Shown here in pieces: positions 23,442 through 58,557 of a DNA stretch of 64,000 nt. Within the stretch, counting starts at the first letter, position 1; every line of letters starts with the position of its first letter. The DNA is from a virus: UHGV virus genome UHGV-0367612; one strand, 5' to 3'. The position numbers and the translations under genes are program-made. The notes under the pieces were generated by a model. It was not told the origin of the DNA. It did no database searches and was given only the letters and a program-made list of their open reading frames with translations.

Positions 23442-23485
23442 TAAAACGGGATATTATATTTGCATTATAATTAAATAATAAAAAT

Positions 23486-29067: not shown

Positions 29068-29086
29068 AAAGTGGTGGAAATTTTTT

Positions 29087-31204: not shown

Positions 31205-31242
31205 ATTGCAAATATAATAAACCCTGATTGCTGATGCAAATC
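31205..31242 (-). promoter_or_regulatory. conserved early promoter copy (Bacteroidetes sigma-A type)
   Basis: Plus-strand ttgcaaatataataaaccctgattgctgatgcaaatcc. On the gene strand this reads GGATTTGCA-N-TATATTTGCAA. Confidence 0.55.
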
Positions 31243-31494
31243 CTTTTTAACCCTAATAGGGATCTGAAACCCGCCCACTTATCTTAGAGGCCTTAACATC
31301 ACCAAGCCGAGATTTAGGATAGGGCTGAAGGACCTATCCTCCATGGCTATGGTTCTCTATCCTAATTCTAATCCTTAGCCTGATATCCATAGCCTGACAA
31401 AGCCAAACACTAAAAGTTCTCCCAGTACATTATATAAGTACAAAGGAGAACTGATCAGGCTTGGGTTGTTGGCCTTGATTTGGGGATATGGCTC

Positions 31495-32988: not shown

Positions 32989-33165
32989 ATTATCATGGTT
33001 TTAGTAATCACTTATATGATATCTGGAAATCTGGGTCTTAGACCTACTTATGAGTAGTTTAAGATAAATCTCTACAAATTCTTTTTAGTTAACTAGATAC
33101 ACAAAAAGAAAGAGCCAAATCATTCAATTTGACCCTTTCCAGTTAATTCAAATTATGGAGTTTAC

Positions 33166-33432
33166 TCAAAAAGTCGCATCTATGTCGATATATACTAAAG
33201 TCCCAGGATTAAACCTGTATTCCTCTTCCTCCTCTGTTTCTATTACCAGTTCCTCAGTCTCATCATCCATGTATATAGATTGAACGTGATCTATGGTTTG
33301 TTCTTTACTGATTTCTGATATGGTTACTATTACTGATTCTTCCATGTTTGAGAAAGCCCATTCTATTATTCCTAGAATCTCAACCGTTTGTTCTAAGGTT
33401 TTCTCTCGTAGTTGTACTGTTAATTGATCCAT
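33166..33432 (-). CDS. hypothetical small acidic protein
   Basis: 88-aa ORF, last gene of an early operon. Confidence 0.35.
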   Translation of the reverse strand: MDQLTVQLREKTLEQTVEILGIIEWAFSNMEESVIVTISEISKEQTIDHVQSIYMDDETEELVIETEEEEEYRFNPGTLVYIDIDATF

Positions 33433-33448
33433 GATTAATCATTATTAA

Positions 33449-33754
33449 TTATAAAGCGTATTCTGATTTTGTAGTCAGAGATATCTGATCTATCTCATCA
33501 TATTCAAATATCTTTTTCTTACCTGCATCCCAGCAGAATGTGGTAAACTTGTTGGGCGTTATATCCGCTATTGTCGGATCTACCAGGTTAATTTTCATTG
33601 TACATCTCTTGGTTTCTTTGAGTTGAATTATCATTTTAATTTCAACTCTTTCATTGTCTTCTACCATCCTAAGGTATAATGCTAGCAACTTTATGAGTTG
33701 TTGCTTAGCATTATTACTTAAGTCTTTAAAGTCTAAAACTAGATTCTCATTCAT
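33449..33754 (-). CDS. hypothetical protein
   Basis: 101-aa ORF. Confidence 0.35.
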   Translation of the reverse strand: MNENLVLDFKDLSNNAKQQLIKLLALYLRMVEDNERVEIKMIIQLKETKRCTMKINLVDPTIADITPNKFTTFCWDAGKKKIFEYDEIDQISLTTKSEYAL

Positions 33755-33756
33755 GA

Positions 33757-34332
33757 TTACTCATTTTTGAGTTTATTCCAAACTTCCAGGACATTCTTGC
33801 AGGTAAGAACCTTATCATGGTTAGTACCAATGGCAGTTGAGGTCATCCATTGTACCATATCCTGAAGTTCATCATCAGAATTGATATAATCACTATCCTC
33901 ATTAGAGAGGTATTCTTCCCACATTCCCTGAACCCATTTATCAATGAGTGCATTCTTTTCCGGGCAATTTGGAATCTGATACAATAACATTTGGATTTGT
34001 TCGGATAGATCTGGTACATAATCATAATAGGAATCATCTCCACCGTCGAAGTTATCGAGCATTACCTCCAAGTATTTACCAGCCTCTTCTAATAGAGTTT
34101 TTAACATCTTATCCCCTGGAAACTCAGGATCCTCAAATGTCCTGACAAATATTTGGGTTGACATATCAATCTCTAACCCTTTCAAGGATTTTAAATACTC
34201 TTCGAACTGTTTATCCTTTTCTGGATTTTCTTCTAATTCGAATTTATCAAAAGCCTTTACCCATTGTTCTCCAATGAACTGATCAGGAGTGTATTCTCCA
34301 ATTTCTGTTAAAATATAAAACTTCTTTTCCAT
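33757..34332 (-). CDS. hypothetical acidic protein
   Basis: 191-aa ORF. Confidence 0.35.
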   Translation of the reverse strand: MEKKFYILTEIGEYTPDQFIGEQWVKAFDKFELEENPEKDKQFEEYLKSLKGLEIDMSTQIFVRTFEDPEFPGDKMLKTLLEEAGKYLEVMLDNFDGGDDSYYDYVPDLSEQIQMLLYQIPNCPEKNALIDKWVQGMWEEYLSNEDSDYINSDDELQDMVQWMTSTAIGTNHDKVLTCKNVLEVWNKLKNE

Positions 34333-34334
34333 AA

Positions 34335-34661
34335 TTAATCTCTAAATAAGGTTAAACTTTTACCTATCTCTTCCCAATCTTTTAGTACCGGAGAATCTGG
34401 TACAAATCTTGAGTTTAGGGCTTCATTTATTTTATCCCTATGTTCAATAACGAATTTTCTCATCTGATCATTTAGGTGATCTTCATATTCTGTTACAGCA
34501 GATTCGATGAAGTCGAATAAATTACCTACTTTTGTTTCGTCTGCATCCAGTAAGATATATTCCTCATGGTCGTTGAGAATCTGTTCTATTTTCCTAAAGT
34601 CTTCTCTTAATTCAAGTAATTCATTACCTGAAAAACTTAAGGTTTTAGTGAACTGTTCCAT
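34335..34661 (-). CDS. hypothetical protein, paralog of 34668..34964
   Basis: 108 aa. Shares a pattern with the adjacent ORF (ELL.L ... EY ... DWE ... L). Confidence 0.4.
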   Translation of the reverse strand: MEQFTKTLSFSGNELLELREDFRKIEQILNDHEEYILLDADETKVGNLFDFIESAVTEYEDHLNDQMRKFVIEHRDKINEALNSRFVPDSPVLKDWEEIGKSLTLFRD

Positions 34662-34667
34662 GGCTCA

Positions 34668-34964
34668 TTATGCTAAAGGTTGTAACAATTCTTTTACTCT
34701 CTCCCAATCTCTTTGGAATCCTGAATTGGGATACCCAACTGAAATAGCATTGCTGATTTCTTCTAAATGATCCTCAAGGAACTCCATGACATCATCGAAA
34801 ATACTTTCCTTATATTCATTTACTGTATCTTCGAGTGTCTCGAAAAATTCTCTTAAACATGGGGTATCACATCTTGAATTCGGGTTAACCTGGTCTTTAA
34901 TCTCCTTGTATAACCCTAATAATTGTGAGCCTTTTAACTCGATTGATCTTTTAATATTCTCCAT
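34668..34964 (-). CDS. hypothetical protein, paralog of 34335..34661
   Basis: 98-aa tandem paralog. Confidence 0.4.
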   Translation of the reverse strand: MENIKRSIELKGSQLLGLYKEIKDQVNPNSRCDTPCLREFFETLEDTVNEYKESIFDDVMEFLEDHLEEISNAISVGYPNSGFQRDWERVKELLQPLA

Positions 34965-34992
34965 AACTCTTTATATTTTAATTATTTAATAT

Positions 34993-35030
34993 ATGCAAAT
35001 ATATAAAACCTGTTTTACTTTTGCAAATCC
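34993..35030 (-). promoter_or_regulatory. conserved early promoter copy
   Basis: Plus-strand atgcaaatatataaaacctgttttacttttgcaaatcc. Identical 39-mer to the copy at 39.5 kb. Confidence 0.6.
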
Positions 35031-35043
35031 TAAATAACCAATT

Positions 35044-35520
35044 TTACTCATCCCTATTTGTGTAATCTACCACCCTAACATAGATATGTCTATTAGGATC
35101 TTTCATTTGGTGTACGTTCTTTTCCTCTTCTCCATCAATGATGAACGGGAATTGTACTGGAGACATGGTCATCTTGAAGGTGTACATCTCAACCCCAAAT
35201 TCATTTTCCAAGATTTCAATGGTTCTCTTAAATACCTGGAAATAGACAAACGGGTAATTCTTTTCAAATTGCCGGGTCTTAATGACAAACTTTTGCATTG
35301 CTGGTGTAGTATAGCTCATTTGACAAGCATCCCTCTCAGATACCTTGAGTGCTGCAGACTGAGCTATCACAACTATGGTGGGTTTATTCTCACCATGTCT
35401 CCCCTCGATTTCAGAGGTAAACAGATAATCTATTTCCTCTGCCTTTAAGGCGATTATCAACTGTTCAATGAATTGCTTAAACGTGCAATCGTAATTTAAC
35501 TGATCTAACTTAACTTCCAT
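35044..35520 (-). CDS. hypothetical protein
   Basis: 158-aa ORF. Confidence 0.35.
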   Translation of the reverse strand: MEVKLDQLNYDCTFKQFIEQLIIALKAEEIDYLFTSEIEGRHGENKPTIVVIAQSAALKVSERDACQMSYTTPAMQKFVIKTRQFEKNYPFVYFQVFKRTIEILENEFGVEMYTFKMTMSPVQFPFIIDGEEEKNVHQMKDPNRHIYVRVVDYTNRDE

Positions 35521-35523
35521 AAC

Positions 35524-35859
35524 TTAAATGTCTAAAATTAACTGAACTCCAACTAATTTGATTGAACCTTCATAAGGTTTCATATATACTCTCTCGTATT
35601 CCGGTAAAGTCATACCTAACATCTTGGCATCGTGTTCAAGCATATCCGTGGGCTCTACCTTAAGTATGTTATCGTCCTTTTGAACATAAACATAAACCCT
35701 CTCATGTTTTTGGGCGTTGGCGATAAAACTCTCAATAAAGTATTCCTTACCATAATGGTCATTACTATCGGATATTTGCTCATCCTTTACCCGTAAATAC
35801 TTATTGTTTAACTCATCCCAAATTAACTCAGCTGCCTGTTGTAACTCTTTTTGCTCCAT
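35524..35859 (-). CDS. hypothetical protein
   Basis: 111-aa ORF. A promoter copy lies at 35888-35923, overlapping a hairpin (acccaag...cttgggt). Confidence 0.35.
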   Translation of the reverse strand: MEQKELQQAAELIWDELNNKYLRVKDEQISDSNDHYGKEYFIESFIANAQKHERVYVYVQKDDNILKVEPTDMLEHDAKMLGMTLPEYERVYMKPYEGSIKLVGVQLILDI

Positions 35860-35954
35860 AACTTAAATATTATTAATTATTTAATTTATGCAAATATAAA
35901 AAACCCAAGTTGCTAATGCAAATCTTGGGTTTCCTTATTAACCTGAATAACCTT

Positions 35955-36320
35955 TTATTCTGTGATGATAACTCCTGACCTCATACCTTCATAAATAAGA
36001 TAAGAGATTAACTGAAGAGGGCAGTTTACCACTCTTTTTCCATATCTCTCCAAGTCCAGAGCATACATGGTTACAAGTGATACTGTGGTAAACGTGTCTG
36101 TTTCTGGGTCATAGCTCCCACGTCCTCCAACTTCTTCGTTAATCACATCCCAATCTACAATTTCGGGATTTTGTACTGTGATACCTTCTACCTGGTCTAT
36201 GTCTGGGATGGGTACTCCTCTCAAGAAATACCTATCATCTTTTTTCTCTAACATCTCATTATCTCTAAGATAATACTGTGTTTTCAGTAGGTCTTTACCC
36301 TTAAATTTCTTGATTGCCAT
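35955..36320 (-). CDS. hypothetical protein
   Basis: 121-aa ORF. Confidence 0.35.
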   Translation of the reverse strand: MAIKKFKGKDLLKTQYYLRDNEMLEKKDDRYFLRGVPIPDIDQVEGITVQNPEIVDWDVINEEVGGRGSYDPETDTFTTVSLVTMYALDLERYGKRVVNCPLQLISYLIYEGMRSGVIITE

Positions 36321-36585
36321 TTTCTACGATTTCTAAAATGTAAGTGTTATTATCCCATACAAATGTGGGATTGTTGATTGATTTCGCTTTACTTTGTAAT
36401 AACCTCAACCCTACTGATTGTGGTATTCTTATCATTACCTTATCACGTATCCTACCGCTCTCTACTACCTCTTGGTGTATTTTATTATCCCATAAGAAAA
36501 GCGTTTCCTTCTCAGAATCCATGTAAATGAAATCTCTGATTGGGATTTGCTCTAATAAATATTCAAAATCTTTCGTGATTAGCAT
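36301..36585 (-). CDS. hypothetical protein
   Basis: 94-aa ORF. A variant promoter and a hairpin (aaaggagta...tactccttt) lie upstream at 36601-36640. Confidence 0.3.
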   Translation of the reverse strand: MLITKDFEYLLEQIPIRDFIYMDSEKETLFLWDNKIHQEVVESGRIRDKVMIRIPQSVGLRLLQSKAKSINNPTFVWDNNTYILEIVENGNQEI

Positions 36586-36645
36586 ATCTAGTTTACATTA
36601 AAAAGGAGTAAAGCATAAACTCTACTCCTTTGCATAAATACTCGC

Positions 36646-37137
36646 TTATTGGATATTATAGGATGTCATATACCTTTTTATCAAATACAATAGCATGATA
36701 AAAGAGTATAACCCTTCTTCTTTAGAGGATACAACTCCATACCCAAATAAATCCATGAAGAAATTCTTATAGATTGATGTCATATTATCATCAATCATGA
36801 GTTGAACAATATTGATGATATCACCAATCCTGTCCTTTTGTACCAGGATAAACCGACGGTCAATGTCTATGTATAACCCATAACTCTTAAACAAGGTATT
36901 CAAGATTTCAGCTATATCCACCGTGTTAATCTTGAAGTCTGGGCTTATACCCTGAATTAACTCTACCGGAGTTATAGCTTTACCTGGATTTACATCACTC
37001 TCCATTGAGAATTCATACCCATCAACATCAAGAACATTGTTTATGCTATATTCTTTGATGATATAGTCCTTGAGTTCATCGATGTCAATGTAACTATTGT
37101 GCATCACCTTGGGTCCCTCCAGTGACCAATTGCTCAA
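36646..37137 (-). CDS. hypothetical protein
   Basis: 163-aa ORF. Confidence 0.35.
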   Translation of the reverse strand: MSNWSLEGPKVMHNSYIDIDELKDYIIKEYSINNVLDVDGYEFSMESDVNPGKAITPVELIQGISPDFKINTVDIAEILNTLFKSYGLYIDIDRRFILVQKDRIGDIINIVQLMIDDNMTSIYKNFFMDLFGYGVVSSKEEGLYSFIMLLYLIKRYMTSYNIQ

Positions 37138-37705
37138 GGATACATTTTAACCGGGTCAAAAGGTCGCAGATAACCTCTGGATTCTTTGCTACCCATGAGT
37201 GGTTGTTGATAACCCATTGCCGATGTTTGTGATATACCAGTAATGAATCAATCATCTCATTCACTGATAGGATAGCATATTCAATGGGTGCCCTGAACTC
37301 GAAATGGAGTGTAGGTTTTCTTGAACCTTGAGTCTCAGCCCATACTACTTGGAATGGGTCAAATTCCAATGAAATCAAATCCCATGGTAAATCATTTACC
37401 TGTTTCCAAAAATCCTCTTGGAATTGTCCCAAAGTCTCCTCTGCAATCCGATCATGTAAAGTGGCTTTACCTGATTTTACTTTGGATTGCAAGGTTCTCA
37501 TGGCAGCTAACGTGATTGCATCTGCCGAAAGTAAGAGTGGTTTTCTCTTCTCTTCTTGTACCGGAGCATCTTCTACTCCAGTATTCTCTGCTACTTCCTG
37601 AACTCCTGCTAATGGTGCCCCAGTTTCGGGGTCAAATTTTGGTTGTGGAATCTCAACCTTTCTTCCTCTTTTTGCCATTTCTTTTAATTTTAAGTTATAT
37701 AACAA
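37094..37705 (-). CDS. hypothetical protein
   Basis: 203-aa ORF. Confidence 0.35.
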   Translation of the reverse strand: MLYNLKLKEMAKRGRKVEIPQPKFDPETGAPLAGVQEVAENTGVEDAPVQEEKRKPLLLSADAITLAAMRTLQSKVKSGKATLHDRIAEETLGQFQEDFWKQVNDLPWDLISLEFDPFQVVWAETQGSRKPTLHFEFRAPIEYAILSVNEMIDSLLVYHKHRQWVINNHSWVAKNPEVICDLLTRLKCILEQLVTGGTQGDAQ

Positions 37706-37718
37706 TGGTTATTAGTTC

Positions 37719-38228
37719 CTATGCTTCACCCATGATTTTATTGGGTACATAGCCGGCTTTTGGTTTACCTATTTTCATAAATCCCTGAATCCATGCTTTA
37801 GCAGCATCTCCAACTGCCATAATGGCCAGATCATTTATATTTTCAATGGTCATGTTCTTACTTTTCTCATTTTGCTTATGAATAATGGGTAGTGCTCTCA
37901 ATACCAAGGCATGGTTATGGGTTTGATCATTCACTTCTTCCATTAACTTAACCATAATACTGATCTTATCATCCTCGTTAAACTCCTTGTGGTCTTTAAG
38001 GAAACCATCCACTGTATCTGTTAACATACTGTGTAATTCCTTATCCAGATCATCCATATCTCCCATAGTTGAGAAGTAATTTCTGAACAGATTCATCACT
38101 ACACTTACCATTAAACTATCTATAAAAGTCGGGGTTATAATACCCGACTCTATGAGTTCTTGAATTTTTCTGATTTCTTCCAACTCTTTATCTGGAAGAG
38201 AATCCAGACTATTTATTCTTTTTCCCAT
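37719..38228 (-). CDS. hypothetical protein
   Basis: 169-aa ORF. Confidence 0.35.
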   Translation of the reverse strand: MGKRINSLDSLPDKELEEIRKIQELIESGIITPTFIDSLMVSVVMNLFRNYFSTMGDMDDLDKELHSMLTDTVDGFLKDHKEFNEDDKISIMVKLMEEVNDQTHNHALVLRALPIIHKQNEKSKNMTIENINDLAIMAVGDAAKAWIQGFMKIGKPKAGYVPNKIMGEA

Positions 38229-38461
38229 TATTTATTCTTTAAGGTTTCATAATCTTCTTCTGTAATCTCTGAGCATCCGGTAATTTCTACTGTGTTACCG
38301 ATAGGAGCATATTTGGCTGTAGTCTCCACTCTAATCTGGTTTTTGATCTCTTCAATCTCTCCCATTGGGTGTTCTCCCTCGGTTTCTACATAGAAAATGT
38401 GTAGTGACTTTCTACCCCTGTAGTTTGTCACGTTTGCGAAAATCATAAAATAGCGTTTCAT
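38228..38461 (-). CDS. hypothetical protein
   Basis: 77-aa ORF. Confidence 0.3.
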   Translation of the reverse strand: MKRYFMIFANVTNYRGRKSLHIFYVETEGEHPMGEIEEIKNQIRVETTAKYAPIGNTVEITGCSEITEEDYETLKNK

Positions 38462-38465
38462 CTCT

Positions 38466-38876
38466 TTATCTTATTTTAGTCCATTCAATCGGTTTACCTT
38501 TTATCTCTGTAATAAAAGAGTCCCAGTTCTGATTGACAAGCAATATATCCATGGGCTCAACTTTTGAGAATTTTTCCAAGAACTCCTCAAAGTTGTTCAT
38601 GATATTCTGGGATAGCTCCTCATTCTTTCCAAAATGTTTGTGTAACTCTTGCCTGAGTAATTTCTCAGATTGGATTCGGAATTGGTCTCCAGCCACTTTT
38701 AATTTCCCAGACCAGATATTCGTGTATTTCAAATCATCCAGTTTTTCCATTAATACAGTGGATACCAGAACAAGCACCATGTATGATGATGCCTGTTCCA
38801 TTGTAATCTTAGTTCCCATAAGCTCTCCCCCTTTTAACCATTTTCTCATGGTGACCCTTAACTGCTTCTGGGTCAA
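38466..38876 (-). CDS. hypothetical protein
   Basis: 136-aa ORF. Confidence 0.35.
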   Translation of the reverse strand: MTQKQLRVTMRKWLKGGELMGTKITMEQASSYMVLVLVSTVLMEKLDDLKYTNIWSGKLKVAGDQFRIQSEKLLRQELHKHFGKNEELSQNIMNNFEEFLEKFSKVEPMDILLVNQNWDSFITEIKGKPIEWTKIR

Positions 38877-39165
38877 ACCCTTTCACTTTTTCCCTTATGG
38901 GCACGATGTGAGTCTTATATAAAGACTTCCATAAAAACTCAGGTAAGGGTCTAAATGAATTCTCTGATACCTTATCCCACTTTGCCCGGAGTGAGTTAAT
39001 GCAAAACCGGAATGTACTCATGTCCTCCATTGCATTAAAATTCGTTATCAGATCATCAAAATCCTTTTTCATGTCCTCAATAAAATTGTTATAAGGGAAA
39101 TTCTCAGTGTTCTCCAAATTATACTTTCCCAAATACTCTGTTACTTCCATGTACCTAACCTCCAT
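38809..39165 (-). CDS. hypothetical protein
   Basis: 118-aa ORF. Confidence 0.3.
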   Translation of the reverse strand: MEVRYMEVTEYLGKYNLENTENFPYNNFIEDMKKDFDDLITNFNAMEDMSTFRFCINSLRAKWDKVSENSFRPLPEFLWKSLYKTHIVPIREKVKGFDPEAVKGHHEKMVKRGRAYGN

Positions 39166-39458
39166 TAAGCTAAATATTTCTCTTGCAATTCTTTTAACTC
39201 TTTTTGTGCCTTTCTCAACTCTTTTGCATCCTCTCCACCAGATGCTCGGAATACCCTTAATTCGGCTTTCTCAATTTGATTCCGAACCTTTTGCCGGTAA
39301 GACTTCCTTTTAACCGTGTCAATCATACCCTTTGGGTATTTGTACCTGAGTTCTTTTCTCACTACCACTTCCTTAACAACCTCTAACTCCATTTGTTCTT
39401 TGGCAGACTTGGTTTCCTTAACCTGTTCTTCCTTTTTTGTTTTGACTTTTGTTTTCAT
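39165..39458 (-). CDS. hypothetical Lys/Glu-rich protein
   Basis: 97-aa ORF. Promoter copy upstream at 39496-39537. Confidence 0.35.
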   Translation of the reverse strand: MKTKVKTKKEEQVKETKSAKEQMELEVVKEVVVRKELRYKYPKGMIDTVKRKSYRQKVRNQIEKAELRVFRASGGEDAKELRKAQKELKELQEKYLA

Positions 39459-39495
39459 AACTTACTCATTATTAATTATTATAATTATTATTAAA

Positions 39496-39537
39496 TGCAA
39501 TGCAAATATATAAAACCTGTTTTACTTTTGCAAATCC
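39496..39537 (-). promoter_or_regulatory. conserved early promoter copy
   Basis: Plus-strand tgcaatgcaaatatataaaacctgttttacttttgcaaatcc. Confidence 0.6.
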
Positions 39538-39541
39538 TTTG

Positions 39542-39736
39542 TTACCCAATTATCAATCCGATAATCATTATTATCAGGAAGAATAAGAAGGCGATCCCCA
39601 CTATGGTGTCAGCTCTTTTCTTATTCTTTTCCCTGATCTCTTCCATGGTCATGGGTTTGGTTATTTTTGAACCTCCATCCACTATAGCCCCGTAAATTAC
39701 AGCTACCACTATTATTACTAAGATGATTGTAATCAT
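39542..39736 (-). CDS. small two-TM membrane protein
   Basis: 64 aa. Sequence 'IILVIIVVAVIYGAIV' ... 'IVGIAFLFFLIIMIIGLIIG'. Confidence 0.35.
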   Translation of the reverse strand: MITIILVIIVVAVIYGAIVDGGSKITKPMTMEEIREKNKKRADTIVGIAFLFFLIIMIIGLIIG

Positions 39737-40041
39737 GATTTCTTTGTTTTAAGTTTGTAAATCTTGTCAATCTCAGTTTGAGATACCACCAATACGTTAT
39801 TCTCTTCATTGAATGTCCAATCCAATTCCTTAAATAATGGATCCATTCTTAAACTCTCTATCAACCTTTTCATGGGTAGTTTATCTGAAAAATAGATAAT
39901 ATTGTTGGTGATGTCTATGGATACCCTTATACGATTATGAGAATCCTCTATCCCATGATTTAACTCTGAACTCTCTACGATGTAGTCTAAGAAATCACTT
40001 AAACTCTCATCTAAAACTGCATTACCTGTTGAGCCTTTCAT
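39733..40041 (-). CDS. hypothetical protein
   Basis: 102-aa ORF. Confidence 0.3.
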   Translation of the reverse strand: MKGSTGNAVLDESLSDFLDYIVESSELNHGIEDSHNRIRVSIDITNNIIYFSDKLPMKRLIESLRMDPLFKELDWTFNEENNVLVVSQTEIDKIYKLKTKKS

Positions 40042-40385
40042 AATCCTAAATACTTTTCTAGTTCTGCTTCTTCTTTTAATTCACGTAATTGCTTACGAGT
40101 CGTTTTCTTTTTACTTTGAAGCTCTTTAATTTGTCTCTGTAAATCCTCCACTGCCGCTTCAATATCATAAGGATCATTCCCATCCACTGAAGTCCCAGTA
40201 TAAATCTCACCCTTGGGAACCTTAATCCCATAATCAGATAAACTCTTGTCCCGATATGGATAGGGAATAGTAATCTTCCCGTAATTCTTTGGAGCATCCC
40301 ACTTTTTCTTCATCTCGGTTTCATTAATCCCATATACACATGATATGAGAATCCCTATCAATACTGCCACTACGTATTTCATCAA
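40038..40385 (-). CDS. putative lipoprotein with coiled-coil
   Basis: 115 aa. Signal peptide with lipobox-like 'ILISC', then a coiled-coil C-terminus. Confidence 0.3.
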   Translation of the reverse strand: MMKYVVAVLIGILISCVYGINETEMKKKWDAPKNYGKITIPYPYRDKSLSDYGIKVPKGEIYTGTSVDGNDPYDIEAAVEDLQRQIKELQSKKKTTRKQLRELKEEAELEKYLGL

Positions 40386-41191
40386 TAATTGAATAAGTGA
40401 TCCAAGACCTGTCTATCTAACCCAATCTCTTTTGCCGGTTTCAAGTCAAACTCATGGTTTAACTGGTAGTTAAATCCATTATAGACGTAATAGTCATTGC
40501 AAATGGCTATCTTGTTTTTCTCCATTTCCAATTTGATCCGATCTACAATATTCTCTCTATAAGTTCCCGGGAATCCAGTTTCTTCAATAACATCCACTAC
40601 CCGATCTTCAAATGATCTTCTAACCTTTTGAGATTCTAATTCTCGGAATGGGTAAATTGCCTCTTCAAACCTGTTGATAAGGTCATTGGCTGAGTCCAAG
40701 AGATATTCCGGATTGAGCATCTTTTCTAAGGCTTCTGTGTGTAACCCCTTGACATGAATCCCAGCACCTTCCGGAATGCACATCCCATTAGTGCATATTT
40801 GCCGGTAAATGGCTGCGGTCATTTGGAATTTCATTGACCCATCATAGGAATTGTAAAAACTCAATTTCGGGTGTAATGAATCTACTCCCTCCATTTTAAC
40901 CTTTTGGTCTTTGAGAATCAAATCCAATCGAGTGATAGCCCCACCCTTAATGAGTTTAGCCTGAGGTTCTACCTTGAATTTATCAGAAAATAATTCAATG
41001 ATAGGTTGAAATACTACCTTATTCTCAACCAAGTGGTATTTCTCAGAGCAAAAATTCACTATTCGTGCATTCTCTGTTCCTGGATTGACAATCACTGCAT
41101 ACTCATTGCTGGAATTAACCTGAATCCCCGGTATCAATTCTGATACCTTTCTTTTAATAACTGGTTGGTAAATCTGTTCTAACGTACTCAT
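40382..41191 (-). CDS. hypothetical protein (DUF932-like?)
   Basis: 269 aa. 'SFYNSYDGS' resembles the NSxDGS signature I recall for the phage/plasmid DUF932 family. Weak evidence. Promoter copy at 41218-41259. Confidence 0.25.
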   Translation of the reverse strand: MSTLEQIYQPVIKRKVSELIPGIQVNSSNEYAVIVNPGTENARIVNFCSEKYHLVENKVVFQPIIELFSDKFKVEPQAKLIKGGAITRLDLILKDQKVKMEGVDSLHPKLSFYNSYDGSMKFQMTAAIYRQICTNGMCIPEGAGIHVKGLHTEALEKMLNPEYLLDSANDLINRFEEAIYPFRELESQKVRRSFEDRVVDVIEETGFPGTYRENIVDRIKLEMEKNKIAICNDYYVYNGFNYQLNHEFDLKPAKEIGLDRQVLDHLFNY

Positions 41192-41271
41192 AATTAATTA
41201 TTTTATTTATTATTAAATGCAATGCAAATATAATATACTCATATTCACATTGCAAATCCTATTTTACTTTA

Positions 41272-41700
41272 TTAACTTTCCCATCTCTCTGTTACGAAGA
41301 TGAAATCGGCTGCAAAGGTAACATCTACCCCATTCTCGAAAAATTGACTGATACCTCTTTGACATTGGTACTCATCAAAATCATAATACTCATCTCCATC
41401 TATATCAAAGTCCTCATTAACAGATTCAAATACCCATTGGTGAAAACCATAACCTCTGGCATCATTCTCGAAGGTATCGAAATGACATAACTGCCAATTC
41501 CTATCTCTGAACCATTTGAAGAAATCCTTCCAGTAAATATTGTTTTTCTCCAATTTCCCATTAATTAAAGTGTAACCCGTTATATATTCCCATACTCCGG
41601 TTCTATTCTGAGAATCATTCCGGATGAATCTTTTGATTGCATCCTCTGTAGTCTTCTTTGCTAATTGCAAGCTTAACTGGTTTAAATCTTGTATCTCCAT
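41272..41700 (-). CDS. hypothetical protein
   Basis: 142-aa ORF. Promoter copy at 41723-41759. Confidence 0.35.
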   Translation of the reverse strand: MEIQDLNQLSLQLAKKTTEDAIKRFIRNDSQNRTGVWEYITGYTLINGKLEKNNIYWKDFFKWFRDRNWQLCHFDTFENDARGYGFHQWVFESVNEDFDIDGDEYYDFDEYQCQRGISQFFENGVDVTFAADFIFVTERWES

Positions 41701-41794
41701 ATATTTATTATTAAAAATTATAATGCAAATATATAAATCCTCAGTTTCCTATGCAAATCTCTTGTTACGTGATTAACATGAAAAGAGGCTCATT

Positions 41795-42214
41795 TTACTG
41801 AGCCTCTGGTTTTAGTCCAAATTTAAGATTGAAATCTCTGAGCTTCTCTCGTGCTCTCTCTTTATAAAAGATCTTTTCCCACCATTTTAGTTTCCCAATA
41901 AAGAAATCTAGTATTGGTTGTTGGTTTTTCAATATAACTTTATGTAGCAATGAAAATTGCTCACTAGATAAATCGTGCATGATATTAGCCATAGCCCCTG
42001 TATTGATCCCCAATTTGGTGTACAAACTGATAGAATCTAGGTTGAGGTCTGTCCAATCATCAACTGATATCCCGGGTATAACACATTCTACTGATTTACC
42101 TAAAACCTTTTTATTAGCGGCTGCTATAACCTGAGCCAGAGTTTTAATAACTGCCAACTCATCCTGGTTAAAAGGAGGCCTATTCTTCATCGCTGTCCTC
42201 GGCATAACTTTCAA
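41795..42214 (-). CDS. hypothetical protein
   Basis: 139-aa ORF. Confidence 0.35.
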   Translation of the reverse strand: MKVMPRTAMKNRPPFNQDELAVIKTLAQVIAAANKKVLGKSVECVIPGISVDDWTDLNLDSISLYTKLGINTGAMANIMHDLSSEQFSLLHKVILKNQQPILDFFIGKLKWWEKIFYKERAREKLRDFNLKFGLKPEAQ

Positions 42215-42989: not shown

Positions 42990-42990
42990 A

Positions 42991-43287
42991 TTAATATCTC
43001 TTTTTACTAATTACTTTAAAATCTTTTGGATAACCCTCTCTCCATATAATCAACATGGATTGATCCTGAATCTCAGTCTCAATTACTATGAATTTAGTAC
43101 CACTACTGTAAGGAATAATCCATTCTCTTATGGGATTTTTCTGAAATTGGGGGGTTGAATCTCTTTTGGAGTTTACCTCTACTATCGTGTTATCTCTTAC
43201 TATGGGTTTTGAAATATATACCCCCATGAATACCCCTATTAACCAGGATACCACCATTCCGATAATTAAAACTGTTTTGAAATTCAT
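42991..43287 (-). CDS. hypothetical N-terminally anchored protein
   Basis: 98 aa with N-terminal TM 'VLIIGMVVSWLIGVFMGVYI'. Confidence 0.3.
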   Translation of the reverse strand: MNFKTVLIIGMVVSWLIGVFMGVYISKPIVRDNTIVEVNSKRDSTPQFQKNPIREWIIPYSSGTKFIVIETEIQDQSMLIIWREGYPKDFKVISKKRY

Positions 43288-43414
43288 AATCTTAAATTTT
43301 GGTTTGTGGGCTGTTGAGACTCGAACTCAACTAAAAACCACTTTAGCCCTTATAATAAATGGCCAGTTCATTATTAAAATCCCTGGCCATTCCTGAAATT
43401 ATGAAGTTACCTGA

Positions 43415-43945
43415 TTAATCTTCATCTTCCTCTGCCTCAACTTCTTTGGCTTCCTTCTTAGCCTTTTTCTTAGCCTTTTTGTCGGCTTTTGATTCTTTTG
43501 GAGCTTCTTCCGCTTTTTCCTCTTTGGCTTCTTTCTTAGCCTTTTTGGATTTCTTCTCTGCCTTTTCTTCTCCATCTCTGGCTTCTGCCTTCTCAGCTGC
43601 TGCCTTCTCCCGTCTCATTTTTGCCCGCCATTTTTTACGTTCTGCTTTGTCATCCATTCCCTCCGGATACTCATATTTTTGAGCGAATGCACCGGTTCCT
43701 GCAGGTTTCAGTTCTTTGCATTGGTCATTGATATTGTCCAATTCTTCTGAAGCAACATCCACTGCCTTTTGCAGTTTGTCGAATTCTTTGCGGATTTTCT
43801 TGTCTTCGATTTCTTCCGGATCTTTGATTGAGTTCTCTTTCTTAAAAGTTCTCAACTCAGCTTTCGCAGTTTTTAACGTTTCCTTTGCGGTTTCCTTTGC
43901 AGCTTTTGCATCTTCGTAATTCTCAAACTTTTTCATCTTATTCAA
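43415..43945 (-). CDS. Lys/Glu/Ala-rich low-complexity protein (histone H1-like tail)
   Basis: 176 aa. C-terminal sequence 'KKSKKAKKEAKEEKAEEAPKESKADKKAKKKAKKEAKE'. Confidence 0.35.
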   Translation of the reverse strand: MNKMKKFENYEDAKAAKETAKETLKTAKAELRTFKKENSIKDPEEIEDKKIRKEFDKLQKAVDVASEELDNINDQCKELKPAGTGAFAQKYEYPEGMDDKAERKKWRAKMRREKAAAEKAEARDGEEKAEKKSKKAKKEAKEEKAEEAPKESKADKKAKKKAKKEAKEVEAEEDED

Positions 43946-44041
43946 ATTTTAAATTAATATATCCTATCTTTGTATTAACCATTAGTCCTTGACCTTGATT
44001 CTCGTGTTCTAGATGCTCATTATTTTTATTTATTATTTAAT

Positions 44042-44082
44042 TGCAATGCAAATATAATATCCTATAATATCATTTGCAAATC
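44042..44082 (-). promoter_or_regulatory. conserved early promoter copy
   Basis: Plus-strand tgcaatgcaaatataatatcctataatatcatttgcaaatc. Overlaps the last codons of the upstream ORF. Confidence 0.5.
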
Positions 44083-44427
44083 TAAAGTTTCTGAGGTTTC
44101 TATTTTAATCACCTTATAATCAATGATTTCCATTCTGTTTAACAGATACCTAATCTCTGATTCTTTGAGTTTACTCACATAGAGAACTTTATTCTCCCTA
44201 TTATCTCTAGTTGGAATGATCACTTTATAAATATCTTGCAAGCTGATCATCTCTAAAAACTGATCCAGGTAATCTTTGCAAGCTTTTCGGTATTGGTTAT
44301 ACCTTTTGGCGTACATCTCTCCTTTGGTTTGTCCCCGATATTCATCCTCTAACGTGTAGAGATTTCTCTTTTGTTGCATTAGGCTCTCAACTACCAGTTC
44401 GACCCTATTCATCTCTTCTACTCCCAT
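44062..44427 (-). CDS. hypothetical protein
   Basis: 121-aa ORF. Confidence 0.35.
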   Translation of the reverse strand: MGVEEMNRVELVVESLMQQKRNLYTLEDEYRGQTKGEMYAKRYNQYRKACKDYLDQFLEMISLQDIYKVIIPTRDNRENKVLYVSKLKESEIRYLLNRMEIIDYKVIKIETSETLDLQMIL

Positions 44428-45011
44428 TTTAAAATCCTCCTGTGTTTGTATTCATTAGTAATTGCACATTTAATCCTTTTCCTTGGAGTATCTGTTTTCA
44501 GATTATACCTCTTGAAGTTCAGTTTCTCCATGAGAATCACATTCTCACATAGATTGTACATGTATTCGTTTTTACTCACGTCATCAATGAGACTTTCTTT
44601 TAAACCTGACCTGAAAATTTTGATTTTCTCATCTATGGCTTTGGCCATCAATTTCTCAGCTAGTTTAATGGGGTCTCCCTTAACCAACTTATAGTTCTCC
44701 ACTCTATTCTTTAACTTAGTAATGAGCTTGTATACCCCTCCAAAGCTGTAAATAAAGTGAGATACATTATCCTGTAAACCATATACCCGGAAATTCTGGT
44801 CTATTTCCTTTTCCCCAGAATAACCAATAGTGTCCAAGCATACAAGGATAACCCCACATCTGGAAGAACAGAGTTGGGCCAATCCCAACTCCTTTCCCTT
44901 CAACCCATGTTTGAGTTTGAATTCCTTGCATATCATATCTTTGCATACTGGTCTTTGATCCCAGTTTACAGAAGCCTGATATCCTTCAAAATTACTTTTT
45001 AGTTTTTCCAT
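44418..45011 (-). CDS. hypothetical protein
   Basis: 197-aa ORF. Confidence 0.35.
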   Translation of the reverse strand: MEKLKSNFEGYQASVNWDQRPVCKDMICKEFKLKHGLKGKELGLAQLCSSRCGVILVCLDTIGYSGEKEIDQNFRVYGLQDNVSHFIYSFGGVYKLITKLKNRVENYKLVKGDPIKLAEKLMAKAIDEKIKIFRSGLKESLIDDVSKNEYMYNLCENVILMEKLNFKRYNLKTDTPRKRIKCAITNEYKHRRILKWE

Positions 45012-45429
45012 AATAACTATCTGACATTAATTCATGTTCCCATTTCTTAATTACTTTAGCATAACCCATATTGGTTCTCATTAACCAATTAACTTCATCT
45101 CGATGAGATTCTAAATCACATTTAGAATCATCATCTTCATCTGTATCTTCAATCTTTTCCAGTTCCTCATCATCGCAGAATTTTACATCGCAAATGGTAA
45201 TTGGTTTCTCCTCTCCTACATTGGTCATGTTGTAGAATACCTTGTATAAAAGTTTTAGAGAATCGTCTGAAGCCATCAGATTTTCAAGGGTGTGTTCATC
45301 TCCATTAGCTAGGCTACCTATAAAATCCCAAAATAAAATCCGATACCGATAAAACTTGGGTAATCTGGGGATTAAGAAGTCGTATGCTTCCCAACCATCT
45401 TCCCTTCCATAAAATAACTTATTATCCAT
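44992..45429 (-). CDS. hypothetical protein
   Basis: 145-aa ORF. Promoter copy at 45453-45489. Confidence 0.35.
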   Translation of the reverse strand: MDNKLFYGREDGWEAYDFLIPRLPKFYRYRILFWDFIGSLANGDEHTLENLMASDDSLKLLYKVFYNMTNVGEEKPITICDVKFCDDEELEKIEDTDEDDDSKCDLESHRDEVNWLMRTNMGYAKVIKKWEHELMSDSYYGKTKK

Positions 45430-45569
45430 GATAAATGTTTTTAATTATTATATGCAAATATATAATCTCGTTATCTTGTTTGCAAATCCCCATTTACTAA
45501 AATAGGGAGCTTGTTGCTCCCTATTCCAAACATAAAATTCTCTAGGCTGATTTTAAAACTGGCAACAGT

Positions 45570-45995
45570 TTACTTTTTACCTTTCTTTCCTTTTTTCGGA
45601 ACCTCAATATCAAGTTCTTTGGCAATTGCAACCCGGAGCTTCTCAACTTCATCCTCATCATCTTCGTCGTAGTCCTCGACATCGATGTCCTCCAGCTCTT
45701 CATCGTCAACCAATTCGGAAAGTTCGTCGTAATCCATGTCTTTGATGTCGTCCCAGGTATATTCGTCGTCATCATCGTCATCGTCTTCTGGTTCTTCCTT
45801 CTTTGCTGGTTTTTTGGTTTCCTTTTTGTGTTCTTCTTTTTTACCTTTTTTCGGAGCTTCTTCCTCCGGATCCTCTTCATCTGCCAAAGCCTCTGCCAAA
45901 GCTTCCAAGTCCAAATCTTTCACTGCCAAAAGAACTTTCTCTCCATCCTCTTCTCCGAGGAAATGTTTGTCATCAATTTTCTTTACAATTTTCAT
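45570..45995 (-). CDS. extremely acidic protein (possible DNA mimic)
   Basis: 141 aa. Asp/Glu runs ('EDDDDDDDEYTWDD', 'DIDVEDYDEDDEDE') with a short basic KKGKKGKK C-terminus. Confidence 0.4.
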   Translation of the reverse strand: MKIVKKIDDKHFLGEEDGEKVLLAVKDLDLEALAEALADEEDPEEEAPKKGKKEEHKKETKKPAKKEEPEDDDDDDDEYTWDDIKDMDYDELSELVDDEELEDIDVEDYDEDDEDEVEKLRVAIAKELDIEVPKKGKKGKK

Positions 45996-46067
45996 TTTTC
46001 TCTGTTTTTAAGTTATTTAATTAACCTTATATCCTAATTTCAAGGTATATTAGCACTTCCAGTATTT

Positions 46068-46739
46068 TTAATATTCTAGGCTTTTTACTGATAAATCCTT
46101 AGTTACATCCACTGCCTCAATAAATTCCTTTGAGAACATTGTCCAGAGGGATAAGGATAAGTGATATCTGTAAAAAGGTCCGTTGTCATATTTCCATTCT
46201 GTTAATGTTTTAAGGATATTAGTTCCATAGACAAAGTCTTTAAGAGGGACCTTATCCCACTTCCTGGTTTTGGTTCTACCACCACCCAGAAATTCTATAA
46301 TATGTTGGGCTCCTTTTACACTATTTAGCTCTGCCAAATTGGTTGTAAATCCTTCTTTAAATCTGGCTATAAATAAGGGAAGATCGTCCTCTACACACCT
46401 TAACAACCAAACTCGATTCTCCAACCTTGCAGTGGCTTGTCGTTTTCTCCTAACTCTCAACCGTTTACTAGTCCTTTCTGCATGAGCTTTGTCTATAAGG
46501 TTAGAAGGTTTGACATCATTTCTAGCTTCACTTATAAGAGGGAGTTTCCTTACCTCAAATAAGGCCTGATCTAACTTGGTTATTTGATAGCCTGGTTTGA
46601 CTTTGAACTCATAATCCTTGAAATAAACCTTGGCTATCTCCAAAGCCTGTTCCTTGAATTGGAATGGCTTATTGATAATCCCAGGCTTTAAAACATCTCT
46701 AAAGTCTAGGATATAATAATGGAGATACTGTATTTTCAT
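46068..46739 (-). CDS. hypothetical protein
   Basis: 223-aa ORF. Confidence 0.35.
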   Translation of the reverse strand: MKIQYLHYYILDFRDVLKPGIINKPFQFKEQALEIAKVYFKDYEFKVKPGYQITKLDQALFEVRKLPLISEARNDVKPSNLIDKAHAERTSKRLRVRRKRQATARLENRVWLLRCVEDDLPLFIARFKEGFTTNLAELNSVKGAQHIIEFLGGGRTKTRKWDKVPLKDFVYGTNILKTLTEWKYDNGPFYRYHLSLSLWTMFSKEFIEAVDVTKDLSVKSLEY

Positions 46740-47272
46740 CCTTTCGCCTTTCTTTTAGCTTTGTTGTACCATATTCCAATTGATTTAGGTGAAGCATCTG
46801 GGAATTGTTCCAATACTGCTTTCTCAGCTTCTTGTTTACTCATTTTTAACCGGAAACACTCAAATGTTTTGGCTTTTGCAGTTCCAGCCATAACTCCATC
46901 AGATGTTTTCTGTTTCTTTTTTCTCGGAGGTTTTTTACTCATCCCGGCAATCCTCTTCATTTTGATAACCATACCGTCATCATCTCTCTCCCCAATAAAT
47001 CCCAACCTCAATGATGGGTGTATCAATTCTTCTGCATCCTCTCCTAAAGTCATTCGGAGTTGTTTCTCCACCCAATCATCAAAATCATCCAATAATTGAG
47101 GATTCTTGGGTTTGTGTAAGTTCTCTATCCAGAATGAATATAACCGGGGAACATCCGCATCAATTACCTCACTGAAAGGCATACCCCTTACAACGCATTC
47201 TCTTTTAAAATCCTTGATGCTCATCTTATCCGCCTTGGAATAAGCATGGGCTCTTCCCTTATCTTTTGCCAT
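46736..47272 (-). CDS. hypothetical protein
   Basis: 178-aa ORF. Confidence 0.35.
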   Translation of the reverse strand: MAKDKGRAHAYSKADKMSIKDFKRECVVRGMPFSEVIDADVPRLYSFWIENLHKPKNPQLLDDFDDWVEKQLRMTLGEDAEELIHPSLRLGFIGERDDDGMVIKMKRIAGMSKKPPRKKKQKTSDGVMAGTAKAKTFECFRLKMSKQEAEKAVLEQFPDASPKSIGIWYNKAKRKAKG

Positions 47273-47275
47273 TGT

Positions 47276-47617
47276 TTAAAAATCTTCGTGATCAATATCC
47301 TCAACCTCTATTTTATTATCTGGGAATTTATAATTCCAGAAATCCCTATAAACCTTTTTGAAATCCTCATTCTCAGGCCCAACCAATTCTGTGTATACAT
47401 ATAATACCCAGTTTATCTTTGGACAAGGAATCTCATGTACTATCTTATCCACCACCCATTCCCAAAATTCCTTTTGAGTGTTTGAGAATCTGGGAAAACT
47501 TGGAGTGATTTTCTCTAACTCATCCTTAAATAGGTGAGAGAACATGAAAACAAGGTCATCTCTATTTAATTCTCTGATTCCCTTGTAATGCTCTATTAAT
47601 ACTTTACTTGTTGCCAT
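47276..47617 (-). CDS. hypothetical protein
   Basis: 113-aa ORF. Promoter copy at 47643-47684. Confidence 0.35.
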   Translation of the reverse strand: MATSKVLIEHYKGIRELNRDDLVFMFSHLFKDELEKITPSFPRFSNTQKEFWEWVVDKIVHEIPCPKINWVLYVYTELVGPENEDFKKVYRDFWNYKFPDNKIEVEDIDHEDF

Positions 47618-47688
47618 GTTTTATTTATTATTAAATATTAAATGCAATGCAAATATAATAAACTTGTTTTTCTCATGCAAATCCTTTG

Positions 47689-48591
47689 TTACCCTTTTTG
47701 CCCTTGTATCCTCGCAATAACATGTTTTCTGAAAACGTTTACGTTTTCTATCTCCTGGAAGTTGATAGCGTATTGTCTTATATCCCTGAATTTAGGCCAG
47801 AACTTCTGACCTGATTTTGCTGACTTATCCTCAGCTGTCAGGTATTCAACAACCAAGCCAGCAAAGTTATTTGCTAGCGTCTCGTTATCAAATACATATA
47901 AATATAGATGTGAGAGTGCTTTTATATTCTTCTGGGTATATCTAACGGGCACTAAGATATACCCATTTGGAAAATCTAAATGTATTAACGGGAGAAACAT
48001 CTTTTGGTACTTCCCATTATACTCGTATAAATCCTTGATATACTCTATTGAGGCCATTGGGATCTTAGAGATATTCCTTAAATGCTTTGCTTCCCTAGCC
48101 TTATTGCGTCTTTTATATGCTGATGGCTCCTGAAGATTGTCTGGAAGAACTCTGAAATTGTTCCAGGCATCAAACTCCTTGATTAGGTTGTATAGGTCTC
48201 TATCACAATCATTCCTGGATTCCATGAGTTTATCCATACCTTCAGTTATAAGCCTTGTCCTACTCTCTTTGATACTCCACACATCATTATTGAACATCCT
48301 TCTTATAGCTTCCTTCACTGGTAACCTCAACTCCATTACACCTTGGAAATACTCCCTAAAATCTTTACCTACCACTGATTCATCTGGAAATAATTCCCCA
48401 TAGGTTTCATAATGAGTGGTGAACATCTCGAAGAATTTCACACATCTTTTCTGAATCTCCAACAATTTGAAATGGGCTTTCTGAACTATCTCCCCTATCT
48501 CCCATGAAGATTTCCCATGTACAGCTGTTAGGTTTAGAACTAACTTCTCTTCATCTGTCAGTATATTCCAGGCTTTATCATTTTTCTTCAT
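47689..48591 (-). CDS. putative HTH transcription regulator (sigma region-4/LuxR-like helix-turn-helix)
   Basis: 300 aa. N-terminal 'LTDEEKLVLNLTAVHGKSSWEIGEIVQKAHFKLLEIQKR' resembles a region-4-type HTH. Confidence 0.3.
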   Translation of the reverse strand: MKKNDKAWNILTDEEKLVLNLTAVHGKSSWEIGEIVQKAHFKLLEIQKRCVKFFEMFTTHYETYGELFPDESVVGKDFREYFQGVMELRLPVKEAIRRMFNNDVWSIKESRTRLITEGMDKLMESRNDCDRDLYNLIKEFDAWNNFRVLPDNLQEPSAYKRRNKAREAKHLRNISKIPMASIEYIKDLYEYNGKYQKMFLPLIHLDFPNGYILVPVRYTQKNIKALSHLYLYVFDNETLANNFAGLVVEYLTAEDKSAKSGQKFWPKFRDIRQYAINFQEIENVNVFRKHVIARIQGQKG

Positions 48592-49255
48592 AATCCTCTG
48601 TTTCTAGTGATATGGTTGCATAAGCTTTATTTAATTTCCTTTCTCCTACCTCTTCAAATCCATTCTCAAGGTAATCAGTACTGTTCATATCGTAATGATA
48701 CATCGTGTAGTATATATTAAAGAAAGGGACAGTTATCTTGAGTGGTGCTCCGTTAGAGATTTCAACTGCGATAATCATGTTCTGTTTCTCCTTGTTTATT
48801 TTCTCAACTACTCCATATAGTCCCTCAAAGGGATACCCACTCAATTTTATACTGTCCCCAACTTTAATGTTCTCCTCTTGATGTTCACTGTATATAGATG
48901 ACTGGCCTGCATCCCTTATTATACGGTTAACCTCTTTAGAGGAGATCATAGCGTAATTAAAACCCTGACTAGGTAATGTCGTATCTCTCAAGAATCCCAA
49001 CAATATTGGGATTTCTCTTTTCAATTTCACTAAGTAATCTATATCATATCTCCTGAACTTAGGTACCCTCATGAACCCAAAATTAAAGAGGTATGGTACA
49101 TCCTCGTAATTATTTCTTCCCCGGTGTTTTCCCTTGAGAACTCGAGTCACTGGGATAACTATCTCTATCCCATACTCTTTCTCAACTTTCTCTATATCTG
49201 TATCAAGGAATTTATTCCTATCGATATATATGATCATCCATGGCCAGTTTTTCAT
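48578..49255 (-). CDS. NusG/RfaH-like transcription elongation/antitermination factor
   Basis: 225 aa. Clear KOW motif 'IKVGDSIKLSGYPFEGLYGVVEKINKEKQNMIIAVEI' and an NGN-like N-terminal domain. Confidence 0.5.
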   Translation of the reverse strand: MKNWPWMIIYIDRNKFLDTDIEKVEKEYGIEIVIPVTRVLKGKHRGRNNYEDVPYLFNFGFMRVPKFRRYDIDYLVKLKREIPILLGFLRDTTLPSQGFNYAMISSKEVNRIIRDAGQSSIYSEHQEENIKVGDSIKLSGYPFEGLYGVVEKINKEKQNMIIAVEISNGAPLKITVPFFNIYYTMYHYDMNSTDYLENGFEEVGERKLNKAYATISLETEDYEEK

Positions 49256-58507: not shown

Positions 58508-58557
58508 GGTTAAATATTTTAATGGTTAAATATTTTATTTATTGCAAATATAATATC

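Follow-up and report, generated by a model that had tools for sequence, protein, structure and literature searches.

Eleven copies of a repeat in an uncultured gut phage genome are probable promoters for the primary sigma factor of a Bacteroidota host

Promoters composed of a -33 and a -7 element are textbook features of the phylum Bacteroidota. The present analysis deals with a family of repeats of this type in the virus genome UHGV-0367612, of which a stretch of 64,000 nucleotides, hereafter called the window, was analysed over its whole length. The kind of element to which these repeats belong is already known from the -33/-7 promoters of Bacteroidota, from the promoters of Bacteroides phages and from the repeated early promoters of T4-like phages. 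The consensus recognised by the primary sigma factor of Bacteroidota consists of TTTG at -33 and TAnnTTTG at -7; in Flavobacterium johnsoniae, where the -33 element is weak or hardly discernible, the latter was refined to TAHHTTTG, with a G at -5 (Baez et al. 2019, PMC6847099). Among phages, P_BfP1E6, which originates from a Bacteroides fragilis phage, is used as the strongest constitutive promoter part for Bacteroides (10.1101/2023.12.14.571725), and promoters of the lytic B. fragilis phage Bf12P1 were predicted from -7/-33 TTTG motifs in early, middle and late classes (PMC13139388). Promoter-early stem-loops (PeSLs) were described in the T4-like phages phi1/RB49, PST and nt-1 (Arbiol et al. 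2010, PMC2839356; Comeau et al. 2014, PMC4122927). Lastly, the candidate family Flandersviridae (median genome size of 85.2 kb) is frequent in human gut assemblies and is assigned by CRISPR spacers to Bacteroides and Parabacteroides hosts, its description making no mention of promoters (Benler et al. 2021, PMC8008677).

The window carries 11 copies of the repeat, ten on the minus strand and one on the plus strand. Read on the gene strand, their consensus is aGGATTTGCA(a/t)-N17-TATATTTGCA(t/a), summarised as aGGATTTGCA-N18-TATATTTGCAt, so that ATTTGCA is present in both boxes. Every copy has a gap of exactly 17 nt from GGATTTGCAA to TATATTTGCAT, and not of 17-19 nt as proposed in an earlier reading of the window made without database searches (the sequence-only reading). 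Likewise, the TTTG-N20-TAnnTTTG spacing is fixed in all 11, and the -7 element is invariably TATATTTG, which fits both TAnnTTTG and the refined TAHHTTTG. The -33 box has the extended form GGATTTGCA. Hence, the assignment of TTTG and TAnnTTTG to -33 and -7 by the sequence-only reading, with the expected spacing, holds for every copy when compared with the published consensus (PMC6847099), the spacer being 20 nt. A position weight matrix derived from the copies gives them scores of 35-51 bits; the best score across 10 shuffles is 8.1 bits and all remaining sites of the window stay at or below 8 bits. No score falls between these two ranges, so the family is sharply bimodal and discrete, far beyond chance. 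Searches with either half of the motif retrieved the ten sites listed by the sequence-only reading and gave 3-5 times as many matches as shuffled sequences. All ten lie within 0-4 nt of the positions given there and on the minus strand as it had said; the plus-strand copy had been missed. By itself, TAHHTTTG occurs 54 times in the window, which is the level expected by chance (48.7 +/- 6.7), and beyond the 11 copies only one plausible intergenic site lies on the same strand as its gene, at 30094.

All copies are located between 23.4 and 58.6 kb, and none lies in the structural module. Nine of them belong to a block of small open reading frames (ORFs) at 31-48 kb in which 17 of the 18 proteins scanned match nothing in Pfam or PHROGs, the remaining one being a DUF932 protein; of the other two, one follows the gene of the family-A DNA polymerase (PolA) and one belongs to a plus-strand cluster. 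In every copy, the first T of the -7 box is followed at 31-45 nt by an ATG, which is the start of the downstream gene in ten of them. The plus-strand copy (23427..23465; AGGATTTGCATTTAGTAAAACGGGATATTATATTTGCAT; 45.9 bits) has the ATG of gene 23486-23743 31 nt past this T and is conserved at the syntenic site in the relatives L013 and L003. On the minus strand, the copies at 31206..31244 (48.5 bits) and 35888..35926 precede the ORFans 30662-31177 and 35524-35859, respectively. Those at 34993..35031 and 39500..39538 (50.9 bits each) precede genes 34668-34964 and 39165-39458; their 39-mers are identical, as had been noticed for 34993 and 39499. The TAA of the gene upstream of the 39500 copy sits 5 nt before the -33 box. 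The copy at 41222..41260 is located upstream of the DUF932 gene (40382-41191), and those at 41723..41761, 45452..45490 and 47647..47685 (50.5 bits) upstream of genes 41272-41700, 44992-45429 and 47276-47617. In the case of the copy at 44046..44084, whose -33 box overlaps the 3' end of ORF 44062-44427, the ATG at +36 opens an ORF of only three codons and the leader of the gene (43415-43945) is about 110 nt long. The most divergent copy (58542..58580; 35.4 bits) has TGGCTTTGCAA at -33, inside the end of the PolA coding sequence, and heads a run of genes encoding ligase, gp32, RecA, exonuclease and SbcCD. A 24-nt extension, ATTATTAAATGCAATGCAAATATA, is shared downstream of the boxes, exactly at 39487 and 41209 and with one mismatch at 47634; it had been reported as 25 nt long, upstream and identical at the three sites, of which only the identity of two stands. 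In what follows, sites 35003, 35898, 39510, 41232, 41733, 44056, 45462 and 47657 designate the copies starting at 34993, 35888, 39500, 41222, 41723, 44046, 45452 and 47647.

Bacterial genomes indicate what these repeats do. A scan of 185,579 bacteria and archaea, each species being represented by one genome, found the 18-base pattern GATTTGCA-N18-TATATTTGCA in at least 120 stretches. Bacteroidota account for 73 of the 80 titles listed (Bacteroidales, Sphingobacteriales, Flavobacteriales, Chitinophagales and Saprospiraceae); the other seven are one Ignavibacteria, two bins named only 'bacterium' with downstream genes of Bacteroidales type, and four other taxa. Among the 118 matches listed, 32 (27%) have a tRNA gene on the same strand 10-66 nt downstream, and further matches in Bacteroidota genomes precede rpmH, rplU, rpsF and efp. 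Being nearly exclusive to Bacteroidota and located before tRNA and ribosomal-protein genes, the pattern has the properties of a strong housekeeping promoter of the phylum. The phage repeat is thus the very sequence that Bacteroidota cells place before their most heavily transcribed genes. In six Bacteroidales loci (L119, L157, L166, L185, L186 and L224), the pattern precedes a conserved AAA-ATPase-like gene (MAKxxNPFxVTGKIxxxYFCDR...), and the spacer of this promoter is palindromic with the -33 box (GATTTGCATTAT...ATAAT).

Independent promoter-like sites located in the same bacterial loci (n=53) served as a reference for the extensions of the boxes. CA follows the TTTG of the -7 element in 27 of these 53 sites, versus a background of 10%, and follows that of the -33 element in eight. 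The conservation beyond the core elements described by the sequence-only reading is therefore generic as far as the -7 box is concerned, whereas this small independent sample does not support an extended -33 box as a general feature of Bacteroidota. The -33 extension is characteristic of this phage lineage and of the strongest promoters of cells. In the bacterial loci, spacings of 19 and 20 nt are about equally frequent.

Translation signals of the phage point in the same direction. The frequency of A reaches 0.58-0.65 at positions -14 to -11, and at -3 A has a frequency of 0.59 and T of 0.07, a pattern that matches the one described for Bacteroidetes (PMC6847099). Shine-Dalgarno motifs are lacking, as the sequence-only reading had noted: only 10 of 74 ATG genes carry a 4-mer of this type at positions -20 to -4, versus 12% of random 17-mers, and pairing with the anti-Shine-Dalgarno sequence is weaker than for random sequences. 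Furthermore, neither an RNA polymerase nor a sigma factor was found among about 50 phage proteins scanned against Pfam and PHROGs or among the Pfam marks on the remainder of the genome. The fit to the consensus, the specificity of the pattern among genomes and the translation signals are three independent lines that support both the promoter function proposed for the repeats and the prediction, already made from the window, of a Bacteroidota host.

We therefore consider it probable that the repeats are strong promoters for the unmodified host RNA polymerase carrying the primary sigma factor of Bacteroidota, and that, in this gut phage with a contractile tail and a genome of 84.9 kb, they drive the non-structural half, i.e. 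the block of about 20 kb of small ORFans and the run of genes from ligase to SbcCD. The complete unit would span about 75 nt. It would begin with an upstream G..A/TAA stretch, which often provides the stop codon of the preceding gene, followed by the -33 box GGATTTGCA, a variable spacer of 18 nt and the -7 box TATATTTGCAT; transcription is predicted to start about 5 nt past the G of the -7 box, and a leader of 19-33 nt, A/T-rich and devoid of a Shine-Dalgarno sequence, would lead to the ATG. Given that the structural module has no copy and that ORFans and replication genes follow the copies, these can be viewed as 'non-late' (early or middle) promoters. The sequence supports this much of the label 'early' that had been given to them, early expression itself being an extrapolation: the copies would most probably act in early or mid infection, the structural module being under some other signal. 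We infer from sequence the actual initiation, its timing, its strength and the mechanism of recombination considered below.

Several observations weigh against this explanation. The closest cultured relatives of PolA are found in Bacillus SPO1-like phages, at about 29% identity. Moreover, GGATTTGCA is conserved beyond generic Bacteroidota promoters, so a phage or host factor may bind there. In addition, host-type motifs occur in the early, middle and late classes of Bf12P1, which means that such a motif alone does not designate an early promoter. Finally, the motif is found neither before any structural gene nor before the replication genes located upstream of PolA (DnaB, primase, helicase). 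As these replication genes and positions 1-21600 of the window are devoid of the promoter family, at least one other class of promoters must exist. In the same genome, past the end of the window, the sole element of the promoter in a divergent region (L246, 3276-3436) is a -7 box (TATATTTGCAC) located on the other strand.

Terminator-like hairpins accompany some of the copies. The sequence-only reading had several copies overlapping hairpins that would terminate the preceding operon; a hairpin is associated with only three of the 11, being absent or weak at the other eight, and overlap is restricted to one of the three. At site 35898, the hairpin (35898-35935, minus strand) holds the -33 box of the copy and its T-run merges into the -7 box. 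The other two lie just upstream of the promoter: an intrinsic-terminator-like hairpin at 41784..41807 (minus strand; AGAGGCTCAGTAAAATGAGCCTCT+TTTC), about 22 nt from the promoter of site 41733, and a hairpin at 45498..45528 (minus strand; GGAATAGGGAGCAACAAGCTCCCTATTTT; z = -2.8) next to that of site 45462. Both maintain their pairing in relatives through compensatory changes, the former by a U-A to C-G change in L082 and the latter by a stem of different sequence in L106 and L243. The three copies concerned would thus be coupled to intrinsic terminators insulating the neighbouring transcription units. One further terminator-like hairpin with a T-run is found at 36602..36631 (minus strand; AAAGGAGTAGAGTTTATGCTTTACTCCTTTTT). 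It corresponds to what had been taken for a degenerate copy of the promoter at 36601, a candidate that we rejected since TAnnTTTG is missing and its score is less than 8 bits.

Comparison with related phages sheds light on how the family may evolve. More than 116 stretches of IMG/VR contain the pattern. In a set of 12 loci from relatives sharing 72-93% DNA identity with the window, promoters are present at syntenic positions; both boxes are invariant across 42 distinct sequences and the spacer varies. For instance, both boxes are kept and the spacer is variable in the orthologues of site 44056 (L065, L082, L106, L243 and L244). At site 35898, L013 and L082 share the 39-mer with 100% identity though the flanking proteins are only 23-63% identical. 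Furthermore, the 39-mer of sites 35003 and 39510 is found at site 41733 in L244 and L049, and L244 has a spacer of the 41232 type at site 47657 between unchanged flanks. Since spacer types move between sites, ectopic conversion, and not selection on the spacer, would explain the identical 39-mers. A more distant relative, MT121964.1 (L250/L251; human feces, Ireland), whose major capsid protein (MCP) and large terminase (TerL) are 47% and 56% identical to those of the window, carries at least eight ATTTGCAT...TATATTTGCAT sites, including one duplicated at 74062 and 75412.

These data raise the possibility that the repeats are, in addition to being promoters, mobile regulatory cassettes similar to PeSLs, recombination between copies causing the insertion, deletion or exchange of the ORFans that follow them. 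Six gene-scale replacements or indels distinguish the promoter-bearing region of the window from that of close relatives. Four of them end at most about 10 nt from the start codon located directly behind a promoter (breakpoints at 31172, 35855, 45423 and 58527; rough binomial p ~0.01 if 10 of about 55 genes are the first after a promoter). They concern ORFan 30662-31177, replaced in L244 and L100; gene 35524-35859, absent from L244, L100 and L245; gene 44992-45429, absent from L243, L244 and L106; and the small ORF 58298-58507, behind the copy at 58542..58580, absent from L247 and L099. The variable segment 44170-45423 is even bounded by promoters on both sides. A replacement of gene 47276-47617 in L243 and L244, suggested by the best blastx hits, was rejected since blastn homology is contiguous. 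Identical spacers at non-orthologous sites of L244 also argue for such exchanges, as do breakpoints in other phages. A second and larger IMG/VR group of viral contigs of 50-88 kb (L053, L014/L016, L055/L031, L036, L074, L092 and L116) has its own types of repeated promoters with the same two boxes, and some of its members have TerL regions 66-69% identical to that of the window. In chimeric promoters of this group (L053, L014 versus L016, L055 versus L031), whose flanks are otherwise unrelated, homology breaks exactly at the -7 box TATATTTGCA. The architecture is also parallel to that of PeSLs, with repeated early promoters of host consensus, stem-loops, a location before ORFans and one copy bordering the DNA polymerase gene (PMC2839356, PMC4122927). 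However, events are few, the replacements 34332-34759 and 39850-40038 have no adjacent promoter, a stem-loop accompanies only three of the 11 copies, and it may simply be that the genes placed first behind promoters are those most easily dispensed with.

We therefore propose only tentatively, giving it somewhat less than an even chance, that the copies are the counterpart in Bacteroidota phages of the PeSLs of T4-type phages: portable cassettes of promoter and leader, sometimes with a terminator, that would recombine within and between co-infecting Flandersviridae-like phages, homogenise spacers, shuttle ORFans and act as the engine of the hyperplastic ORFan block of about 20 kb. As the copies are nearly identical, they could recombine with each other, which would account for the homogenised spacers and for the gain, loss and replacement of genes right behind them. 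This proposal complements the one of host-type promoters and is not exclusive of it.

An alternative that we regard as improbable is that the sites need a phage factor, either an activator or sigma appropriator acting at the extended -33 box, like MotA/AsiA at T4 middle promoters, or a repressor binding ATTTGCA...ATTTGCA, and would therefore be middle or regulated promoters. The conservation of GGATTTGCA and of the upstream G..A beyond the generic consensus, as well as the occurrence of ATTTGCA in both boxes, would agree with such a factor. Many early ORFans have no known function, and gene 48578-49255 (minus strand) encodes a protein of 225 amino acids with a weak match to a 'transcription antiterminator' PHROG (phrog_6386, E = 9e-5), which makes it a candidate regulator of the early-to-late switch. 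However, the extended pattern, including the -33 extension, precedes tRNA and ribosomal-protein genes in the genomes of uninfected Bacteroidota, so the host polymerase alone evidently uses it. Moreover, the ATTTGCA repeats are 28 bp apart, i.e. about 2.7 helical turns, and are thus out of phase for a dimeric binder, and no recognisable DNA-binding regulator was found adjoining the sites.

The view that the copies are ordinary sigma-70-type promoters (TTGCAA-N17-TATATT, with 9/12 matches to TTGACA/TATAAT) of a phage whose host does not belong to Bacteroidota is very hard to sustain: a simple sigma-70 scan flags several copies at 9/12 and the closest cultured PolA homologues belong to Bacillus phages, but this view leaves unexplained the invariant TTTG after TATA and the TTTG of the upstream box, about 90% of the genome matches listed are from Bacteroidota, Shine-Dalgarno sites are absent, unlike in phages of Firmicutes or Proteobacteria, and Flavobacterium phages are the second-closest cultured phages for TerL, after a Microcystis phage.

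Protein homology is too deep to designate the host. MCP and portal match uncultured gut contigs only. The TerL extein is 56-58% identical to proteins of uncultured gut contigs, then 34-39% identical to those of Microcystis and Flavobacterium phages. The window is part of the genome of a tailed phage, encoding a tail sheath protein, a portal, a protease, an MCP and an intein-containing TerL, together with PolA, ligase, a gp32-like protein, RecA/UvsX, a 5'-3' exonuclease, SbcCD, a PD-(D/E)XK nuclease, thymidylate synthase and Cpn10. Over the parts compared, it is 100% identical to an ENA metagenome scaffold (ERZ28567999, scaffold_116) of 84,879 bp, which is the size of the complete genome. Its capsid protein occurs in the assembly collection in 46 blocks, 28 of which have a contig of 50-200 kb, and the contigs concerned are typically 79-85 kb long. 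About 19.7 kb of the approximately 20.9 kb located outside the window carry tail and baseplate genes on one side and those of DnaB, primase and helicase on the other side; no further copy of the promoter was found in these 19.7 kb. The promoter region and the replication module gave no match in a near-DNA search against GenBank phages, and scans of the window for tRNAs and against Rfam returned nothing.

Some other features of the genome deserve mention. The large terminase gene (17193-19655, minus strand) contains an intein (amino acids 196-520) that starts with C, ends with HN|T and carries an HNH/NUMOD4 homing endonuclease. PolA (58558-61767) has an in-frame insert of about 309 amino acids (amino acids 540-848; 59223-60152, minus strand) beginning with CYSGDTEIL and ending with SGN|T. 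As it is cleanly absent from the relative L099, this insert is probably a second intein. A large non-coding stretch at 29068-30661 combines G-rich blocks and an AT-rich block. In addition, gene 29559-29987 lies between the arms of an inverted repeat of 35 nt (29434-29468 / 30075-30109, 83% complementary), one of which has a -7-like TATTTTTG. This stretch may correspond to an origin, to a segment that can be inverted or to a further promoter region. Finally, a string located in intergenic region 43288-43414 (GTTCGAGTCTCAACAGCCCACAAACCA) is similar to the 3' end of a tRNA; ARAGORN detects no tRNA anywhere in the window.

The promoter family allows a call of the host phylum, from regulatory sequence alone, for an abundant and uncultured lineage of gut phages of about 85 kb for which protein homology is uninformative, the best cultured matches of PolA belonging to Bacillus phages. 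It also marks out the transcription units within a 20-kb block of early genes of unknown function and indicates which of these ORFans are likely to be expressed first. Moreover, the near-perfect match to promoters of tRNA and ribosomal-protein genes suggests that the unit of about 75 nt, promoter plus leader, could be used like P_BfP1E6 to obtain very strong expression in Bacteroides engineering. If the proposed recombination between copies is true, promoter-mediated modular shuffling, so far described from T4-like phages of Proteobacteria, would extend to phages of gut Bacteroidota.

Compared with the systems described so far, the phage studied here resembles Flandersviridae, by description only, in its size (84.9 kb), its gut origin, its prevalence in gut assemblies, its gene content and order (MCP, portal, sheath, baseplate, TerL and protease, then DnaB, primase and PolA) and its block of about 20 kb of ORFs without known function; unlike what is described for this family, the TerL search did not specifically recover Ackermannviridae as nearest cultured relatives. 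P_BfP1E6 and the promoters of Bf12P1 belong to different phages and are likened to the repeats by description: they are phage promoters with the -33/-7 TTTG elements of the host. In Bf12P1, however, the motif occurs in early, middle and late classes, whereas it is confined here to the non-structural half. With the cellular sigma-ABfr promoters of Bacteroidota (PMC6847099), the 11 copies have in common both elements, the 20-nt spacer, TAHHTTTG and A-rich leaders without a Shine-Dalgarno sequence, but they are far more uniform and their -33 element is extended to GGATTTGCA. The PeSLs of T4-like phages differ in having sigma-70 -35/-10 boxes instead of the -33/-7 elements of Bacteroidota, a Shine-Dalgarno component and about 50 copies per genome; the repeats described here, known from sequence alone, number 11, of which three have a stem-loop. 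Both consist of a repeated promoter of host consensus located directly upstream of ORFans in a plastic, ORFan-rich region, with one copy bordering the DNA polymerase gene; some copies, three of 11 here, have stem-loop terminators upstream of or between the boxes. A further possible parallel is that the indels and replacements that distinguish relatives end at PeSLs, as four of the six events seen here, a small sample, end close to a promoter.

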